The notes: generated from the letters alone by a model not told the origin. A DNA stretch of 64,000 bases from an archaeon (GCA_043814055.1 JBDRKL010000010.1:1-64000); one strand, 5' to 3'; shown: positions 14,807 through 22,004, numbered from the stretch's first letter. Numbers and translations are program-made.

Positions 14807-15277
14807 ATGAAAAATCTCCGCAAAGGCATATCTGTTAATTTTCAGGCGCAGGATATTCAGCCAATCTGCGGGGCGCTGAAGCAAATCTATCCCGATGCGG
14901 GTGTTTCCCAGCACGCAAACAACAACTATTCCATCGCCTTAAATGGTGTGCAGGCAATTCTTTTTGAGCAGGTGGGTTTCCGCGGAATTCCGCACCTTTA
15001 CGCCAAGCTGGATGATTCTGCACTCTCTCCTGAGGATTTTTCAAAGGTTGAGCGGGTCCTAAATAGCATTGGTATTACAATTGATAAAACGTTTTTAAAT
15101 CCCGGCATACTGGCTGTGATTGGCATTGTTGGCGGCAGTATTGCAATCGGCTTCCTTGGCATGGTTTTTGGTCGGGTAATAATCTGGATTGGCATACCCC
15201 TCTTGGTCATGGCTCTGGTTCTCCTGAAATTCATACTCTTGCCAAAACTTGGGGGTTCAAATGAAAAGCCTGCTTAA
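14807..15277 (+). CDS. Hypothetical membrane protein
   Basis: Soluble N-domain plus two C-terminal TM helices; paralog-like to the next ORF. Confidence 0.65.
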   Translation: MKNLRKGISVNFQAQDIQPICGALKQIYPDAGVSQHANNNYSIALNGVQAILFEQVGFRGIPHLYAKLDDSALSPEDFSKVERVLNSIGITIDKTFLNPGILAVIGIVGGSIAIGFLGMVFGRVIIWIGIPLLVMALVLLKFILLPKLGGSNEKPA

Positions 15278-15734
15278 GGGACTTTTCTCCGCGCGGTATA
15301 CCGAGGATGAAATAGCTGGGATTTATGCAGAGCTTAAAAAAGCCTGCCCCGTCGCCAAGCTCGTTGAAGGCCAGAATGAAAAGATCATACTCCTAAACGG
15401 CAAGAAGGCCCTTATTTTTACAAACCGGCTCGGCAAATTTGTGGCAAAAATCGATGAGTTTGCCCTTACCAAGGAAGAATACAGCGTGATTCAGGAATCT
15501 CTGGGCGCGCAGGGCATAACCATATCCGCGCCTGGCTCTGAACAGGGGAAACTGCCTATGGACAAATGGCTCCGTTATAGTGTTTTTGGCTTGTTTGGGT
15601 TCGGCTTGATAGTGTCTGCAGTGTTGATTGCAATCGCTGTGCAAAGCGGTGATGTTTCAAACCAGATTTGGATGTTCCCTTTTCTCGTTCTGGTTGGATT
15701 AATCTCTTTTAACTCTATGACAAAAACAGCTTAA
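15261..15734 (+). CDS. Hypothetical membrane protein, paralog-like to the previous ORF
   Basis: Shared pattern I-x-LNG...A...F...AK(L/I)D and two C-terminal TMs. Start probably ATG 15261 after GGGGG. Confidence 0.65.
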   Translation: MKSLLKGLFSARYTEDEIAGIYAELKKACPVAKLVEGQNEKIILLNGKKALIFTNRLGKFVAKIDEFALTKEEYSVIQESLGAQGITISAPGSEQGKLPMDKWLRYSVFGLFGFGLIVSAVLIAIAVQSGDVSNQIWMFPFLVLVGLISFNSMTKTA

Positions 15735-17200
15735 TTGTTGATTCTCCACCGCGCCCCATCTTTCCCATCTTCCAGAATTATTCCAAGCTTTTCAAGCTTT
15801 TTGCGAATCTCATCGCTCTTTCCATAATCTTTCTCCCTGCGCGCGGTTTCTCTCAAGTCAATCAGCGCTTTCATATTCTCTTTAAAACTCTTCTTTTTAA
15901 CATCAAATTGCCTGGCGAGCTCAAGAACCGCGTGCTCGGTGTCTTCGCTGACCTCGTTCTTCTTCAGAATCTTAAAAATTGAGTCAAGCTCTTCAAGCGT
16001 TTCAAGGCCTGCCTTCAGCGTTGCCTTTGATGCTCCGCCCTCTGCATTCCCACCTTCCATCTGCTTATTTAAAATTTTGCTCAGGTCAAATAGCTTGGAC
16101 ATAGCTATTGAGGTGTTGAAATCGTCATCCATCGCGGCTTTGAACTCTTTCTTCACTTTCTCAAATTCTTTTAAGACTTTTTCATCAGCTTTTCCAGCCT
16201 TTGCTTTCTCAAGCGCCTGCCTCAGATTATCATAAGTGTTCTGCAGTTTTGACAGGCTCACAGCTGCCTGCTCAAGGTAAACATCCGCAAAGTCAATCGG
16301 CGAGCGGTAGTGAGTTGAAATCAAAAAGAATCTGATGGTTTTAGCGTCATATCGCTTGAGCAGCTCGCGGATTGTTGAGAAATTCTTGAGCGACTTGCTC
16401 ATCTTGGCCTTGTTCACAGTGATGAAACCATTATGCAGCCAATATTTCACGAATTTCTTCCCTGTTGCGCACTCTGCCTGCGCTATCTCGTTGCTGTGGT
16501 GCGGAAATATCAAATCCTGCCCACCGCCGTGTATATCAAACGTCTCTCCGAGGTACTTTGAGCTCATTGCTGAGCATTCTATGTGCCAACCTGGTCTCCC
16601 CTTACCCCAAGGTGAATCCCAGCTAATCTCCCCTTCTTTAGCCCGCTTCCAGAGCGCGAAGTCCAGGGGTTCGTCCTTCAGCGGGCTTGGTTCAATCCTT
16701 TTCCCAGCTTCCATCTCCTCAATCTTCATCCCTGAGAGCTTGCCGTAGTCTTTGAATTTGTTAACTGAGAAATAAACATCCCCGCCTGCTTCGTAGGCGT
16801 AGCCTTTCTCTATGAGCTTTTCAATGAGCTTAATCATCTCCCCAATGTGCTCGCTCGCTTTTGGATATTTGTCAGCTCGCTCTATGTCAAGAGAGTCCAT
16901 ATCCTTGAAATACTCTTCTGCGTATTTCTTTGAAAGCTCAAGCGGTGCAATTTTCTCTTCCTTTGCGCGGTTTATGATTTTGTCATCAACATCTGTGAGA
17001 TTTTGGATGTAAACAACCTTGAAGCCGCTGTATTCCAAATAGCGGTGAATAACATCAAACGCGACATAAGCGCGGGCGTGCCCTAGGTGCGAAAGGTCAT
17101 AAACCGTTGGTCCGCAGACATACATCCAAACCTGCCCTGGTTTAACTGGCTTGAAAGCTTCCTTCTTTCTGCTCAGGGTGTTGTAGAGATTTAAGGTCAT
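15731..17200 (-). CDS. cysS: Cysteine--tRNA ligase
   Basis: MYVCGPTVYD, HLGH (HIGH), PGWHIECSAM and KMSKS. Start is ATG 17200 (ATGA overlap with the toxin stop) or 17206. Confidence 0.97.
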   Translation of the reverse strand: MTLNLYNTLSRKKEAFKPVKPGQVWMYVCGPTVYDLSHLGHARAYVAFDVIHRYLEYSGFKVVYIQNLTDVDDKIINRAKEEKIAPLELSKKYAEEYFKDMDSLDIERADKYPKASEHIGEMIKLIEKLIEKGYAYEAGGDVYFSVNKFKDYGKLSGMKIEEMEAGKRIEPSPLKDEPLDFALWKRAKEGEISWDSPWGKGRPGWHIECSAMSSKYLGETFDIHGGGQDLIFPHHSNEIAQAECATGKKFVKYWLHNGFITVNKAKMSKSLKNFSTIRELLKRYDAKTIRFFLISTHYRSPIDFADVYLEQAAVSLSKLQNTYDNLRQALEKAKAGKADEKVLKEFEKVKKEFKAAMDDDFNTSIAMSKLFDLSKILNKQMEGGNAEGGASKATLKAGLETLEELDSIFKILKKNEVSEDTEHAVLELARQFDVKKKSFKENMKALIDLRETARREKDYGKSDEIRKKLEKLGIILEDGKDGARWRINN

Positions 17201-17475
17201 AGCCATTCATATCCTTTGCCGCGGTGGAATATCTTTGTTATCATTACTGTGCTATTTTCTACCATGTATAATATTCTATAATTTCCAACTCTTAACCTAT
17301 ATAAGTCCTCTCCCTTCTTAACGCCCTTGAGCATTTTGATGTCAGTGCCCGACCTGCTTAGGAAGGGGTCTTTTTGCAGCTGCTCAGTTCCTTTTTTTAT
17401 GCGCTGACCTGTCTCATAGTCAAGCCCTGTTATAAACTTCACAGCAGTGCTGCTTATGTTGACTTTGTAGGCCAT
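17197..17475 (-). CDS. relE: RelE/ParE-family type II toxin
   Basis: YRLRVGNYRILY and KIFHRGKGYE RelE signatures. Confidence 0.88.
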   Translation of the reverse strand: MAYKVNISSTAVKFITGLDYETGQRIKKGTEQLQKDPFLSRSGTDIKMLKGVKKGEDLYRLRVGNYRILYMVENSTVMITKIFHRGKGYEWL

Positions 17476-17663
17476 TTCACGTCGCTCAGCGGCACAAATT
17501 TGTCGTCTCTAAGTACTTTGTAGTGTTCTTCAACCAGTGATTCATATTCCAAGGCCATCATCATTTTTTTAATGATGTCATCATATGTCTCGTCCTTTGT
17601 GCCAAACTTCTTGAGCTCGTCACGCGTTTCTTTTTCTATTGCGATTGTGGTCAATTGTTCCAT
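17454..17663 (-). CDS. Putative antitoxin, ribbon-helix-helix-like
   Basis: TTIAIEKETRDELKKFG..ETYDDII. Small, acidic, overlaps the toxin start; SD GAGGTG. Confidence 0.75.
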   Translation of the reverse strand: MEQLTTIAIEKETRDELKKFGTKDETYDDIIKKMMMALEYESLVEEHYKVLRDDKFVPLSDVKWPTKST

Positions 17664-17721
17664 TATACACCTCTATTATGTTTGATTATATGTTATTATA
17701 ATGATATATAAATGTTATGTT

Positions 17722-18604
17722 TCACTTAAACAGCTCAGTGCTTAAATATTTAGCCCCTCCATCCGGCAGAAGCGTTGCAACCACGTTGCTTTCTTTCTTA
17801 TTTGCTTCTTTCAACGCAATATACATCGCAGCTCCTGAGCTCATCCCTGCAAAGATGCCTTTTTCTTTCGCAAGTAGCTGGGCTGTTCTCACTGCATCAG
17901 CTGAATAGACATCCACAATTTCATTAACAAAGCCCGGGTCAAAGATGCTCGGCGTGAACTTCTCCTGCATGTTGCGCAGTCCCTGTATCGGCTCTCCGCG
18001 CGCAGGTTGGACTGCAATGAGCTTTACTTTTGGATTTACCTCCCTTAGTCGTTTCCCAATTCCCATTATGGTTCCTCCTGTCCCAATCCCGGCAACAAAT
18101 ACATCAATCTTCGGCAACTGCTCAACTAATTCTTTCCCAGTTGTTTCATAATGCGCCCGCACGCTCGCCTCATTATTGAACTGGTCCGGCATGAAGTATT
18201 TGGAATCTTTTGCGAGTTCCTGCGCAACCTCAATCGCCCCCTCAGTCCCCAGCTCGCCGGGTGTTAAAATCAGCTCTGCGCCGAGCGCCTTGAGCCATTT
18301 GCGCCGCTCAACACTTACATTCTCTGGCATTACAAAAAGTGTTTTAAAACCCCTTTCAGCTGCGAGCATTGCAAGACCTATTCCTGTATTGCCTGATGTC
18401 GCTTCAAGAATTATTTTGTCTCCTTGAAATCCTTCCAAGAAATATTTCGCAACCCTATCTTTCACAGAGCCGCCGGGGTTGAAGAACTCGAGCTTTGCGT
18501 ATACATTATCTATCTGCAATAGTGGTGTATTTCCAATAAGCTCTGCTACATTAGCCTTAACAAAGGCCACCACCAACTTTTACAGCATTTAGTCTCATTT
18601 TCAT
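17722..18604 (-). CDS. cysM: PLP-dependent cysteine synthase (CysK/CysM family), predicted to be expressed through a +1 frameshift at 18565-18560
   Basis: IGNTPL, NPGGSVKDR (PLP Lys), ATSGNTG, GTGGT and KYLST. The catalytic frame (17722-18576) has no ATG before the PLP Lys. The SD-led ATG at 18604 is in another frame. The product family is certain; the 5' boundary is inferred. Confidence 0.85.
18557..18604 (-). CDS. 0-frame short ORF MKMRLNAVKVGGGLC* overlapping the cysteine synthase 5' end
   Basis: AAGGAGGTTT-ATG AAA ATG AGA CTA AAT GCT GTA AAA GTT GGT GGT GGC CTT TGT TAA. Confidence 0.75.
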   Translation of the reverse strand: MKMRLNAVKVGGGLC

Positions 18605-18620
18605 AAACCTCCTTAAAATT

Positions 18621-18675
18621 TGGAGCAGGGAGACAAAACACAGACATTGCTTTTTGTTACTGTGTTTGCCTCTGC
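18621..18675 (-). ncRNA. tRNA-Cys-like armless hairpin, copy 2
   Basis: GCAGAGGCAAACACAGUAACAAAAAGCAAUGUCUGUGUUUUGUCUCCCUGCUCCA; 55 nt, GCA in the loop, UCCA end. Confidence 0.65.
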
Positions 18676-18694
18676 TCCGCTGACCACTTTATTA

Positions 18695-18749
18695 TGGAGC
18701 AGGAGACAACGCACAGACCTTGCAATTGGTTACTGTGCGAGCCTCCTGC
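18695..18749 (-). ncRNA. tRNA-Cys-like armless hairpin, copy 1
   Basis: GCAGGAGGCUCGCACAGUAACCAAUUGCAAGGUCUGUGCGUUGUCUCCUGCUCCA; acceptor stem identical to the neighbouring tRNA-Cys, UCCA end. Confidence 0.7.
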
Positions 18750-18772
18750 TTTTGCTGTGCCTTTTATGAGAA

Positions 18773-18846
18773 AGCAGGAGATGGGATTTGAACCCATATA
18801 AATGCGCTCTGCAGGCGCACGCATGACCGAATTTTGCTACTCCTGC
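18773..18846 (-). tRNA. tRNA-Cys(GCA)
   Basis: Acceptor GCAGGAG/CUCCUGC with U73, D arm GCA/UGC with GG, anticodon arm UGCGC-CUGCAGA-GCGCA, T arm AUGGG-UUCAAAU-CCCAU. CCA is not encoded. Confidence 0.92.
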
Positions 18847-18849
18847 GTG

Positions 18850-19025
18850 CTCCGCCGAATTGCGGAGGATAATTGCGCTGCACAAGTTTGTGAAGATACA
18901 GCGCTACCGGGTCAGTTGCCCGGCATCTCAGCTCATAGTTCTGAAATCACTAACAATTAATTGCTGAGAACTATAGAGGTTAACCTATGCTTGCCTTACT
19001 GGCTACAGCAACAACCGCACAGGTT
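18850..19025 (-). promoter_or_regulatory. Structured leader with five consecutive hairpins upstream of tRNA-Cys
   Basis: Stems found by eye at 19025-18982, 18978-18932, 18924-18906, 18904-18875 and 18867-18850. Confidence 0.6.
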
Positions 19026-19034
19026 TCTCTTCAT
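18996..19034 (-). CDS. Cys-rich leader peptide MKRNLCGCCCSQ
   Basis: ATG AAG AGA AAC CTG TGC GGT TGT TGC TGT AGC CAG TAA; the ATG is 29 nt downstream of the first T of TTTATA (19063-19058). Confidence 0.75.
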   Translation of the reverse strand: MKRNLCGCCCSQ

Positions 19035-19056
19035 TAGATTTCAAATGTACAGCACC

Positions 19057-19066
19057 CTATAAATAT
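19057..19066. promoter_or_regulatory. Candidate bidirectional TATA box
   Basis: CTATAAATAT lies about 29-30 nt from both ATG 19034 (-) and ATG 19088 (+). Confidence 0.55.
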
Positions 19067-19087
19067 CTGATGGTTCTAAGCTACAAC

Positions 19088-19276
19088 ATGCCCTGCGACA
19101 ACCAAGAAAACGCTGACTGCCCGTGCACATACTCCTGCGAAAAGCACGGCAAGTGCTGTGAGTGCCTGAAATATCACTTGGGTAGAAACGAGCTTCCAGC
19201 CTGCTGTTTCTCATCTGAAACGGAGAAAACTTATGACCGCTCCTTCCAAAAATTCGCAGAAGACAAAGGGCTCTAA
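19088..19276 (+). CDS. Small Cys-rich protein, DUF6485-like
   Basis: CPCTYSCEKHGKCCECLKYH...ELPACCF...EKTYDRS, recognised from memory of the family. Start 19088 preferred over 19070 on TATA spacing. Confidence 0.75.
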   Translation: MPCDNQENADCPCTYSCEKHGKCCECLKYHLGRNELPACCFSSETEKTYDRSFQKFAEDKGL

Positions 19277-19907
19277 ACCCAAAGTTATCTGCCTGTTCTC
19301 ATCCGGCATAGACAGCCCTGTAGCCGCGCACTTATTGCTTGAGCAGGGCATTGAAGTCATTCCTGTGTTCTGCTACAATTACCCGTATATGGACGAGGAA
19401 GAAATCCAGAATGTCAAGCTTCTCCTGCACACGCTCTCAAAGCTCCACAAGGTCAAGCTCACGGCATATATGATCAAGCACGGCCCGTCCCTGATGGAGT
19501 TCAGCGAGCACTGCGAGCCAAAGGCGATGTGCATTCTTTGCAAGCGGATGATGCTTCGCACTGCTGAGAAAATAGCTAAAAAAGAGAAAGCAATCGCAAT
19601 TATGACCGGTGAAAATCTCGGGCAGGTTGCGTCGCAAACTCTTGATAATTTAATTGTAAACCACGCAGCTGTAAAGCTTCCTGTGCTAACTCCGCTTCTC
19701 GGATTTGACAAGGAGGAGATTGTGCAGATTGCGAAGAAAATCAAGACCTACAACCACTCAATCGCGCCGACAAGCGGCTGCAGCGCAGTTCCAAGGTATC
19801 CTTTGACACACGCCCGGATTGAGCAAATTCAGGAAGAAGAGCGCAATGTGAATGTTAAAAAGCTGGTTGACGCGTCGTTCAAGAGCATCAAGGCGGTGAA
19901 ATATTGA
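19233..19907 (+). CDS. thiI: ThiI-family tRNA sulfurtransferase, PP-loop catalytic half
   Basis: SSGIDSPVAA, CILCKRMM, TGENLGQVASQTLDN, PLLGFDKEEI and a third Cys (GCSAVP). Confidence 0.88.
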   Translation: MTAPSKNSQKTKGSKPKVICLFSSGIDSPVAAHLLLEQGIEVIPVFCYNYPYMDEEEIQNVKLLLHTLSKLHKVKLTAYMIKHGPSLMEFSEHCEPKAMCILCKRMMLRTAEKIAKKEKAIAIMTGENLGQVASQTLDNLIVNHAAVKLPVLTPLLGFDKEEIVQIAKKIKTYNHSIAPTSGCSAVPRYPLTHARIEQIQEEERNVNVKKLVDASFKSIKAVKY

Positions 19908-20758
19908 AAAAGAAATCTGCTCCTAAACCAGAGCTGAAGCCAAGCACAATCCTTGTTCGCTTCGGTGAAATCGCCCTGAAGAGCCCAAGAGTCCGCCGCA
20001 AGTTCGCCAGCCGCTTGGTGGGTAATATGAGGCGAATGCTTCCTGGACATCCTAGGATAAAAAAGGAATGGAGCCGAGTATTTGTTGAAGCCGGCGACCC
20101 TGAAGTGCTCTCTGCGCTGACTAAAATATTCGGCATAGTCTCGGTTTCGCCTGCCTATGTGTGCGCGCCAACAATGCCTGAGATACAGAAGCTCGCGCTC
20201 AAATTGGCAAAAGAGCATATCAAAAAGACAGATTCATTTGCAATCCGCGCCCGCCGCGCAGGAACGCACAAGTTCACAAGCCAGGATATTGGAATAAAAA
20301 TTGGGGATGCAGTGCGCAAAGCATCAGGCGCCAAGGTCAATTTGGGAAAGCCAACAAAAGAGCTCTTCATAGAGGCGCGGCAGGACCACGCGTATGTGTT
20401 CATTGAGTCAATTAAGGCACCGGGCGGTCTGCCCTACGGCGTTGAAGGCAAAGTGCTTGGGCTTTACGAAGGCTCAGCTGAGTTCAAATTAGCAACTTAC
20501 CTGCTCGCGAAGCGCGGATGCGAGATTGAACTGCTCGGCAATGCTCCAGCTGATTTCATGAAAGAGTGGCTCGGCGGGGTCAAAGTGCATTCAAAAATGC
20601 CAAATGATGACAGATTAAAAGCAGTATACACCGCGGACACAATTAAAGACATTAAAAAGTTCGCAGCGTTTGACAAGAAATATGAGTTAGAAGTTTTCCG
20701 CCCACTGTTGGGTTTAAATGAATCTGCAATCAAGAAAGCTTTAGGAATACTCCACTAA
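19904..20758 (+). CDS. ThiI N-terminal/THUMP protein with degenerate PP-loop domain
   Basis: ILVRFGEIALKS, SFAIRARRAG and GPG-like APGGLPYGVEGK. SGGxDS is replaced by YEGSAE. TTG start overlaps the upstream stop. Confidence 0.8.
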   Translation: MKKKSAPKPELKPSTILVRFGEIALKSPRVRRKFASRLVGNMRRMLPGHPRIKKEWSRVFVEAGDPEVLSALTKIFGIVSVSPAYVCAPTMPEIQKLALKLAKEHIKKTDSFAIRARRAGTHKFTSQDIGIKIGDAVRKASGAKVNLGKPTKELFIEARQDHAYVFIESIKAPGGLPYGVEGKVLGLYEGSAEFKLATYLLAKRGCEIELLGNAPADFMKEWLGGVKVHSKMPNDDRLKAVYTADTIKDIKKFAAFDKKYELEVFRPLLGLNESAIKKALGILH

Positions 20759-21481
20759 GCTTGTCTTAAAAATTCTTTCTATATCCCGTACAATGCTCTT
20801 ATTGTCAATGCTGTTCGCGAGCCTCTGGGTTTTCCTGTAAATTTCAGCAGCTTCTTCCAGCTTTCCGAGCCGCTCAAGGCACTTCCCTTTCAGGTACATA
20901 TTCTGCGCGAGAATGTTTTTTATTTCAACTCCATACTTCTCTCGTATTTCTTTTTGAGGATCTTCTTCCACCCTATTGCTAATATCTTCTGCGCTTGCGC
21001 TTATTGCCCTGTAAATTTTGTAGGCTTCAGTATACTTTTTATCTGTGTACGCTTTAGTAGCTCTTGCCTTCAAATGCTCCACGCTCTGCTTCCAGTTCTC
21101 CATCAAATCCCTGTAAAGTTCATCAAAATCAGCGAATCCAAGGCCACCAAACTCTGTTTTCACAATATCCTTAATTGCAGCCGCGCCCAACAAAAGTGGA
21201 AAGTATCTCTTTAGTGTGAATATGTTTTTTAGCTCGCCAGCGCGTTTTTGCTCTCTTTTAATATAATCCTTTACAGTATCAAGCGTTTTCATGTATTCAA
21301 TTGGTTCATTGTTCTTGCAAAAAATTATGGCTCTCACGTGCTCTTTTATAGCCTCAAAATAATCAGAATCATCCTCCCTGCGCTTTGCCTCGTATAGTGC
21401 GTAACTCGGAGTTTTCTTGAGATTGTCAAGTGTCTCAAGCAATTTCTCAGTTGGTGTTTTTTTCTTTGGTCTCTGCGCCAT
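20741..21481 (-). CDS. Hypothetical helical protein with C-terminal TPR-like motif
   Basis: YLKGKCLERLGKLEEAAEIY. Confidence 0.65.
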   Translation of the reverse strand: MAQRPKKKTPTEKLLETLDNLKKTPSYALYEAKRREDDSDYFEAIKEHVRAIIFCKNNEPIEYMKTLDTVKDYIKREQKRAGELKNIFTLKRYFPLLLGAAAIKDIVKTEFGGLGFADFDELYRDLMENWKQSVEHLKARATKAYTDKKYTEAYKIYRAISASAEDISNRVEEDPQKEIREKYGVEIKNILAQNMYLKGKCLERLGKLEEAAEIYRKTQRLANSIDNKSIVRDIERIFKTSLVEYS

Positions 21482-21530
21482 TAGTCCTCGCGTTATCTTG
21501 AACTAAAACATATAAAACATTTCCCATTGC

Positions 21531-21962
21531 CTACTTCTTCTTTGCTACCAGATTCACGTTCTTCTCAATCTGGATGGTTGGAAGCTGCATCGGGGCAGGA
21601 AGCTTCATTTCCTTTGAAAGTACCAGAGCCTGTATTACAGAATTTCTGAGCGCCACGTTGCTGACCTCACTAAAAGCACCCTCATTAAACGTTACTTTTT
21701 TCTTTTCCTCTTTGATGTGCTTCTTCAGATCCTTATCGTGGAAAATTGCTCTGCCTTCTATGATAATGCTGCCTATCTCTGGCTCATATTTTGCTTTGTA
21801 CTCAAAACTGGCTACAACCACGTCTCCAAGCCCTGGGAGCTTCTCTTTCTTGATTCCTGTAAGCCCAAAGTTGCTGGAAACCTTTACGCCTTCCTTTACC
21901 TTTATATCCTTCATGTTTCGCTCTGTTGCGAGCTTGTCGTATATTAAATCAATTACTGGCAT
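21531..21962 (-). CDS. Conserved-looking archaeal hypothetical protein, possibly SecB-like fold
   Basis: SD GAGGTG; FEYKAKYEPEIGSIIIEG...LPAPMQLP pattern. Confidence 0.65.
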   Translation of the reverse strand: MPVIDLIYDKLATERNMKDIKVKEGVKVSSNFGLTGIKKEKLPGLGDVVVASFEYKAKYEPEIGSIIIEGRAIFHDKDLKKHIKEEKKKVTFNEGAFSEVSNVALRNSVIQALVLSKEMKLPAPMQLPTIQIEKNVNLVAKKK

Positions 21963-22004
21963 TTTAACACCTCGTGTGGTGCGCTTATTTGTATTGAGCA
22001 GTAT

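Follow-up and report, generated by a model that had tools for sequence, protein, structure and literature searches.

Why should a short open reading frame (ORF) rich in cysteine codons lie ahead of the gene for the transfer RNA (tRNA) that decodes them? The question is raised by a locus in a stretch of archaeal DNA of 64,000 nucleotides (nt) (GCA_043814055.1 JBDRKL010000010.1:1-64000, hereafter the window), where a minus-strand leader ORF encoding MKRNLCGCCCSQ lies upstream of a tRNA-Cys gene. A preliminary description of the window, made from the sequence alone, had proposed a leaderless, Cys-rich leader peptide folded into a hairpin. The ORF, its conservation in relatives, its gene context and the predicted hairpin, all of which can be read from the sequence, make it probable that the pre-tRNA-Cys transcript begins with a leaderless regulatory ORF, which would sense Cys-tRNA by the mechanism set out below.

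A Cys-codon leader ORF upstream of tRNA-Cys

The ORF as first noted is real. On the minus strand, positions 19034 to 18996 read ATG AAG AGA AAC CTG TGC GGT TGT TGC TGT AGC CAG TAA, i.e., 12 codons beginning with the ATG at 19034 and followed by TAA at 18998-18996. Cys codons occupy ORF positions 6, 8, 9 and 10, which confirms the reported four Cys codons in five positions. Two of the four are TGT, a codon that makes up 21% of Cys codons in the long ORFs of G000, the genome to which the window belongs (0.98 Mb in 14 contigs, 82% complete). This genome is archaeal, with both an archaeal small subunit ribosomal RNA and an archaeal RNase P RNA. An A/T box occupies 19058-19065 (minus strand, TATTTATA; plus strand, TATAAATA), and 23 nt separate it from the leader ATG. 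The same box is 22 nt from an ATG at 19088 on the plus strand, which opens a gene for a Cys-rich protein of 62 amino acids (DUF6485, 19088-19276). By this box-to-ATG spacing alone, the divergent genes look leaderless, and the box, likely a shared TATA box judging by the same distances, likely serves both transcripts.

Such a density of Cys codons, four in five, is reached 38 times in G000 when all frames are counted, so the run alone proves nothing and might be part of a chance short ORF inside an intergenic hairpin. ATG-initiated ORFs of 6-25 codons in which four of five residues are identical number 314 in this genome, three of them with Cys. Only 22 of the 314 lie outside long ORFs, and exactly one of these 22 is a Cys case, namely MKRNLCGCCCSQ, the sole intergenic short ORF of G000 with a Cys run. 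Among 40 tRNA calls in G000, tRNA-Cys alone has a short ORF with repeated cognate codons upstream of it, apart from one case, probably due to chance, in which MLRPYRVSSSETKTIG, a short ORF containing three Ser codons in a row, starts 60 nt 5' of a tRNA-Ser(cga) call (G000:C12, approximately 18810-18870, minus strand). No convincing comparable leader for another amino acid was found in G000; the candidate MNSTKVGVVV was rejected, as it overlaps a tRNA-Pro call. The Cys-codon ORF is kept at the same place in nine genomes of four families and was not found in 388 other archaeal genomes (see below). A chance origin is contradicted by these comparative data, and we regard it as extremely improbable.

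The order of this archaeon is represented by 13 species genomes and its phylum by 17. tRNA-Cys was located in 12 genomes of the order, nine by BLAST and three (family f5) by a sequence pattern; it was not located by the pattern in G009, G014, G015 and G016, which stand outside the counts. A short ORF that starts with ATG and carries a Cys run occurs 79-220 nt 5' of tRNA-Cys in nine of the 12 genomes, and in families f1-f4 it is present in nine of nine. Cys-codon runs upstream of orthologous loci are thus conserved. The three f5 genomes have no Cys-run ORF before tRNA-Cys; there, an A/T-rich box some 35-50 nt before the tRNA gene, beside a divergent gene, forms an ordinary promoter. In the leader-bearing genomes, no conserved TATA box was found near tRNA-Cys. 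The sole tRNA-Cys located outside the order, that of G013, has no leader ORF.

In the relatives, the leader peptides are MDQKKKKSKCGCCS (G005), MNQIRLCCCCC (G001), MKLNLCCCC (G011), MKSELCCCC (G007 and G003), MMNTDKICCCCCC (G002), MKSKTFDCCCCCQ (G006) and MEPKTIECCCCCC (G010). Across the nine genomes, the ORFs have 9-14 codons, residues ahead of the Cys run are not conserved, the number of Cys residues ranges from 3 to 6, and TGT and TGC replace each other. The stop codon follows the run within 0-2 codons in every case, which puts the run at the 3' end of the ORF. An A/T box lies 20-26 nt before the leader ATG in eight of the nine genomes, and in the seven relatives among them a box with at most two mismatches to TTTAAATA ends at this distance; the spacing that had been pointed out in the window therefore holds for most of the group. 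Because the N-termini differ, the Cys number varies, TGT and TGC are interchanged and the stop is kept near the run, the leader appears to behave as a reading frame rather than as a fixed peptide or a fixed RNA word.

This pattern bears on a different explanation, according to which the leader is an untranslated, structured part of the pre-tRNA. Its UGY repeats (Y, pyrimidine) would then act as RNA, in T-box-like anticodon pairing, in binding of cysteinyl-tRNA synthetase (CysRS) or as a processing signal, and the frame would be incidental. UGC and UGU are indeed complementary to the GCA anticodon, tRNA genes of G000 commonly have long 5' leaders with multiple hairpins, and a CAUAG motif in the leader is kept even where it is unpaired (G002). 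However, an incidental frame is at odds with an in-frame ATG whose distance from the A/T box is fixed in eight of nine genomes and an in-frame stop within 0-2 codons of the run in all nine, and TGT and TGC vary as synonymous codons would. Rfam searches of positions 15000-22000 at E values up to 1 and of the whole window at gathering scores returned tRNA only, and no T-box. Pairing of the leader, through either GCAUAGG or the UGY run, with the body of tRNA-Cys was considered and discarded, since by eye this complementarity is not conserved. An untranslated leader is, in our estimate, unlikely.

In all nine genomes, the gene 3' of the leader is tRNA-Cys, the sole constant partner; in the window, tRNA-Cys (GCA) occupies 18773-18846 on the minus strand (called by ARAGORN; Rfam tRNA, 60.2 bits). 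A cysteine synthase gene (G000, G002 and G011) or, directly, a CysRS gene (G003, G006, G007 and G010) lies downstream in seven of the nine. As tRNA-Cys is the only constant partner and G001 and G005 have other genes behind it, the primary target of the leader seems to be the tRNA-Cys gene itself. The tRNA-Cys of G005 (L008, approximately 1284-1690) contains by eye an intron of about 220-260 nt after the anticodon loop, and ARAGORN in default mode gave no call for it.

Beyond the order, a pattern of four TGY codons located 30-250 nt before a tRNA-Cys-type anticodon loop and a T loop matched in seven genomes of the order but in none of 388 further archaeal genomes; since the pattern misses intron-bearing or unusual tRNAs, the latter count means not found rather than absent. 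A pattern scan of metagenomes gave 56 stretches, including three archaeal leaders whose peptides are identical to those of G010, G001 and G006 and hence add no diversity. Most of the other matches had no tRNA at the expected position. In four high-GC, bacterial-looking metagenome contigs (L055, L059, L065 and L084), tRNA-Gly(GCC) is followed by a short ORF, MTIF(T/S)GS(H/R)ARCCCCPCA, with three TGT codons and then by tRNA-Cys; this ORF may be an independent bacterial poly-Cys leader or a chance product of the search pattern. A contig scan based on CysRS found at least 80 loci, nearly all bacterial, with 42-50% identity among the matches listed. Among these listed matches, L109 alone has tRNA-Cys, with no Cys-run ORF beside it, and one Iainarchaeum CysRS (49%) is no closer than the bacterial ones. 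In addition, a contig of Gallibacter intestinalis, a Clostridia genome, carries a short ORF encoding MTCCCCCCAKNCDDTRESDGFLS (L098, approximately 195, plus strand) about 3.8 kb 5' of cysS.

Predicted hairpins and the proposed mechanism

The minimum-energy fold of the window leader places the Cys codons in a hairpin (hairpin 1, 18982-19025, minus strand), in which both stems of the preliminary description were recovered. The outer stem, AACCUGUGC/GCAUAGGUU, has nine pairs (19025-19017 with 18990-18982), and the inner stem is UUGCUG/CAGUAA, with the stop codon inside its 3' arm. The 5' arm AACCUGUGC corresponds to codons 4-6, including the first Cys codon, and the later Cys codons fall in the inner stem. 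The 190 nt between the ATG and the tRNA gene fold with -68.2 kcal/mol (z = -4.37), and none of 200 shuffled sequences did as well. Shuffling the 26 nt that follow the stop weakened their predicted pairing with the 3' part of the ORF in each of the nine genomes (z from -1.0 to -3.9). The combined Fisher p of 1.6e-5 over seven lineages is descriptive, as the lineages are related and not fully independent. Single-sequence folds and shuffles were used because the MAFFT alignment is not structure-aware.

The first Cys codon, UGC, is predicted to pair with the GCA of GCAUAG in five genomes. In the three genomes of genus g3 (G002, G006 and G010), the pairing partner lies just 5' of the first Cys codon and the inner stem is formed from later Cys codons. 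The arms of hairpin 1 change in pairs between families: AACC/GGUU in some versus GUC/GGC in others, for example, and likewise the innermost pair of the outer stem, which is either C-G or A-U.

A hairpin that is kept over the Cys codons is relevant to the idea that the ORF is translated for the sake of its product, a poly-cysteine micro-peptide of 9-14 residues that would bind metal or sulfur and be co-expressed with tRNA-Cys. Such a role would fit the frame, start and stop that are kept in nine of nine genomes and the sulfur-themed surroundings (ThiI domains, the Cys-rich DUF6485 protein and cysteine synthase). It does not need a conserved RNA hairpin, though; the N-terminal residues are not conserved and the Cys count varies, and the ThiI and DUF6485 neighbors are found in the window only, leaving the tRNA as the sole constant partner. 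We think a function of the peptide itself is improbable. Fixed start and stop geometry combined with variable residues disfavors this explanation and the untranslated leader alike.

The stretch from hairpin 1 to the tRNA gene is predicted to contain another hairpin (hairpin 2). In the window (18926-18969, minus strand), pyrimidines dominate its 5' arm, UAGUUCUCAGC, and purines its 3' arm, GCUGAGA / AGAACUAU; the loop reads AAUUAAUUGUUAGUGAUUUC. Hairpin 2 is predicted in all nine genomes with differing stem sequences, each time with this bias of the two arms, a loop rich in U and a 3' arm that ends at or close to the tRNA; its covariation was judged by eye. In six of the nine genomes, the loop is AUUUCUUUG, located 29-52 nt before the tRNA.

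The window leader differs from those of relatives by an additional segment of about 80 nt (18847-18925, minus strand), which comprises three GC-rich hairpins, of which the one nearest the tRNA adjoins its 5' end. This segment is absent from the leaders of relatives and is the general pre-tRNA leader module of G000: related GC-rich hairpins stand ahead of at least eight of its tRNA genes, with A/T boxes (by eye) about 115-130 nt upstream instead of about 30 nt. Partial copies of the 18847-18925 module occur at G000:C2:5053-5088 and G000:C10:103901-103923. Because long, structured tRNA leaders with distant promoters are normal in G000, transcription of tRNA-Cys from the 19058-19065 box fits, and such a long leader can be removed since an archaeal RNase P RNA is present. 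The order of elements in these 5' modules is a long GC-rich hairpin, ..TTGTCAACT.., and a short hairpin abutting the tRNA (contigs C4, C8, C9, C10, C12 and C13 of G000). An interpretation of the hairpins as C/D-box RNAs was rejected, as the boxes are by eye not conserved.

In the mechanism that we propose, transcription would start at or beside the ATG, and a ribosome would translate the frame of 9-14 codons. By ribosome-footprint geometry, a ribosome with its A-site at any Cys codon covers the 5' arm of hairpin 1, and one at the stop codon covers part of the 3' arm; hairpin 1 would thus form only once the ORF has been vacated. Experiments have shown this logic for the leaderless polycysteine short ORFs of mycobacteria (10.1101/834739). 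When Cys-tRNA-Cys is plentiful, the ribosome would pass the Cys codons, terminate and leave, and the vacated Cys-codon segment would pair with GCAUAGG(UU) to give hairpin 1 directly before a pyrimidine/U-rich stretch. Hairpin and stretch together would slow or end transcription, so that few polymerases reach tRNA-Cys and the later genes. When Cys-tRNA-Cys is scarce, the ribosome would wait on the Cys codons, cover the 5' arm and block hairpin 1, allowing more transcription into tRNA-Cys and, where present, into cysteine synthase and CysRS. A useful output must act on transcription, because the next gene is a tRNA and RNase P cuts the leader off. The ORF, the A/T box in eight of nine genomes and the hairpin in all nine support the reading of the ORF as a leaderless, Cys-sensing leader.

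For the last step, U-tracts are relevant. According to the available text of one review, they are the archaeal termination signal, and their number sets efficacy together with aCPSF1 (PMC13675443). Tracts of U4-U6 directly follow hairpin 1 in the three g3 genomes, and the other relatives have several U3-U4 tracts only. The earlier statement that no classical hairpin-plus-U-tract terminator precedes the tRNA is correct for the window.

It is also conceivable that Cys-tRNA-Cys is sensed by this leader with an output other than termination, i.e., coupling or pausing close to the promoter, an effect on transcript stability, or the blocking of a second tRNA promoter. The lack of a U-tract terminator in the window would be in line with such an output, AUUUCUUUG before the tRNA in six of nine genomes could be a promoter element, and in g4 the 5' sequence AUGAAAUC can pair with GGUUUCAU just before the tRNA. 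Against it are the U4-U6 tracts after hairpin 1 in the g3 genomes and, for transcript stability, the separation of leader and tRNA by RNase P, whose RNA is present: from what is known of pre-tRNA processing, the stability of the leader should leave the tRNA yield unchanged. We assign this explanation a low probability.

Several observations weigh against the proposed attenuation at the tRNA-Cys leader. The main gap is the weak U content of the window, which has a single U3 tract between hairpin 1 and the tRNA and, on its minus strand from the ORF to the tRNA, no terminator made of a hairpin and a U tract. No convincing antiterminator pairing was found in the leaders; the sole alternative seen by eye is that the 3' arm of hairpin 1 pairs weakly, over 3-5 bp (AGG..CCU), with the 5' arm of hairpin 2. 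RNAalifold on a MAFFT alignment of the nine leaders gave 0 pairs and no consensus structure. The minimum-energy fold of G002 leaves the conserved CAUAG unpaired, so this motif may do something other than pair. If AUUUCUUUG were a separate tRNA promoter or a terminator, it could make the ORF its own transcription unit. G005 has no A/T box before the leader ATG, and neither G001 nor G005 has a cys gene after tRNA-Cys. The nine leader genomes are related, and counts over them overstate independence. Finally, the one RNA run in which any part of the locus was present, a metatranscriptome containing 9% of the sampled words, yielded two low-depth contigs (17335-17585 and 18389-18520), and the leader was not covered.

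A candidate frameshift in cysteine synthase and the neighboring genes

A second place where ribosomes may respond to cysteine lies further downstream. The cysteine synthase family gene of the window (CysK/CysM-like, pyridoxal phosphate-dependent; 17722-18576, minus strand) has a match to Pfam PALP at 4e-65 and scores 318.8 bits against the NCBIfam cysKM subfamily, under the cut-off of 344. A strong Shine-Dalgarno sequence, GGAGG (18612-18608), and an ATG at 18604 open a frame of 15 codons, MKMRLNAVKVGGGLC, which ends at ...GGC CUU UGU UAA (CUU UGU UAA, 18565-18557); the whole element spans 18557-18612 on the minus strand. The enzyme continues in the +1 frame as ...GCC UUU GUU AAG..., and the gene appears to need a programmed +1 frameshift at CUU-UGU-stop.

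The same layout, NUU UGY with a stop within 0-1 codons, is found in four of the seven cysteine synthase genes of the phylum (the window, L178, L179 and L183). The 0 frame ends with CUU UGU UAA in G000, CUU UGC CGC UAA in G002, CUU UGC UAG in G011, and GUU UGU UAA in G013, which belongs to another order. For G011 and G013, neither ATG nor GTG nor TTG occurs in the enzyme frame from its upstream in-frame stop to the conserved IGNTP motif. Each of the four genes has a Shine-Dalgarno-like element (GGUGGUG, GUGGU, GGGAUC or GGGUGAU) 2-3 nt before the slippery codon, as judged against the 3' end of 16S rRNA, GAUCACCUCCU. TGT is the rarer Cys codon of G000. The cysteine synthase genes of G014, G015 and G016 look ordinary. 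A search of 151 genomes with a specific frameshift pattern gave three immediate-stop cases and one chance match, the latter in G041, which was rejected because its frame is non-homologous.

Sites of this kind are known from prfB, where +1 frameshifting occurs at CUU UGA with an upstream Shine-Dalgarno-like element, and from Ty1, with CUU followed by a slow codon. The candidate shares with them a Shine-Dalgarno-like element 2-3 nt before a CUU (or GUU) codon in the P-site, a slow codon in the A-site, a nearby 0-frame stop and a protein in the +1 frame. Unlike in prfB and Ty1, the slow A-site codon is a sense Cys codon (UGU or UGC), and it is located in a gene that makes cysteine. By analogy, a shortage of cysteine would raise the synthesis of cysteine synthase through the frameshift. 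'Hungry codon' frameshifting is treated in PMC5009743, in the part of that text available to us, and our literature searches, in sources available in part, found no frameshift with a Cys sense codon in a cysteine-making gene. If real, the frameshift would act as a naturally occurring 'hungry codon' switch, coupled to the same amino acid that it senses, and as a second Cys-codon sensor. It would independently support the view that this lineage reads its cysteine supply through the ribosome. We put forward only tentatively the broader possibility that the ribosome serves twice as a cysteine sensor at one locus, once through a poly-Cys ORF that meters transcription of tRNA-Cys and once through a hungry-codon +1 frameshift that yields cysteine synthase only if Cys-tRNA arrives slowly.

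Between tRNA-Cys and the cysteine synthase gene, two long hairpins occupy 18624-18750 on the minus strand (fold z = -6.13). Their common ending is ...CUGCUCCA. The acceptor-stem sequence of tRNA-Cys plus UCCA closes the first of them and makes it resemble an acceptor minihelix. The apical core of this hairpin family, CACAGTAACCAA..AAGGTCTGTG, is also present at G000:C6:47177-47202 and G000:C10:117069-117100. In G001 and G007, an incomplete repeat of tRNA-Cys, from its T-arm and 3' acceptor strand, follows the tRNA gene; a second tRNA at this place was rejected, as no tRNA model matched.

Downstream of cysteine synthase, the minus strand carries genes for a ParE-family toxin and a DUF7557 protein (17197-17663; matches to ParE_toxin and DUF7557), which separate it from cysS, the gene for CysRS (15731-17206; Pfam tRNA-synt_1e at 3e-137, DALR_2 and CysS_C). 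The two are likely a toxin-antitoxin pair inserted ahead of cysS. On the plus strand, ThiI (19233-20758) is split between two ORFs that overlap and whose order is swapped: the PP-loop/ThiI domain (19233-19907) precedes ThiI_fer with THUMP (19904-20758).

Comparison with known systems

Ribosome-mediated attenuation is a textbook bacterial mechanism, with trpL, hisL and pheL as classical examples and pheM ahead of pheST. The archaeal leader shares with these attenuators an ORF of cognate codons before genes for the same amino acid, i.e., tRNA-Cys in nine of nine genomes and cysteine synthase or CysRS in seven of nine. It differs in that no terminator/antiterminator pair was found in the leader and no hairpin-plus-U terminator in the window, that an archaeal polymerase with its own termination rules is involved, and that the controlled gene is a tRNA gene. 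T-box leaders of bacterial cysS and cysK sense the charging of tRNA-Cys by reading the tRNA directly, without a ribosome. Both kinds of leader stand before cys genes, and sensing of charging is what we propose here, but the Rfam searches gave no T-box match.

The preliminary description had called this type of attenuation poorly documented in archaea, and our literature searches agree with it: at the level of the texts covered, mostly abstracts, they returned no archaeal leader-peptide attenuator and no leader peptide before a tRNA gene. In the available text of a 2026 cross-domain review of termination (PMC13675443), neither 'attenuat' nor 'leader peptide' occurs. If our model is correct, no leader-peptide attenuator would have been described in Archaea before this one, nor any for a tRNA gene. 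It would show that the speed at which its own codons are decoded can feed back on a tRNA gene and would provide a defined, testable system for the influence of a translating ribosome on archaeal RNA polymerase, a long-standing question of coupling and termination. The leader and frameshift elements are short and portable, and reporter tests with them would be easy to build.

The closest precedent, which the preliminary description does not name, is in mycobacteria, in which, as far as the available part of the report goes, leaderless polycysteine short ORFs (Ms5788A and five further loci) are Cys-responsive attenuators (Canestrari et al., 10.1101/834739). The same text sets out the classical scheme, in which a short ORF with cognate codons precedes genes of its own amino acid and the position of the ribosome decides the folding of the RNA (10.1101/834739). 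In mycobacteria, the vacated Cys tract pairs with the ribosome-binding site belonging to the next gene and a stalled ribosome blocks this pairing, which results in translational control (10.1101/834739). To judge from that source, the archaeal leader resembles these ORFs in its terminal run of Cys codons, in the predicted pairing of the Cys tract with a downstream segment, and in the cys genes that follow; a leaderless start, if the A/T box spacing is indicative, would be a further resemblance. The Cys tract of mycobacteria, however, pairs with a Shine-Dalgarno site, whereas its archaeal counterpart pairs in the predicted fold with GCAUAGG(UU), behind which lies no start codon and the next gene is tRNA-Cys, so that control would have to act on the RNA itself; one system is bacterial, the other archaeal, and we see no sequence relationship between the two. 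On present evidence, the archaeal leader thus appears most like the mycobacterial polycysteine attenuators, and new in being archaeal and in standing before a tRNA gene.

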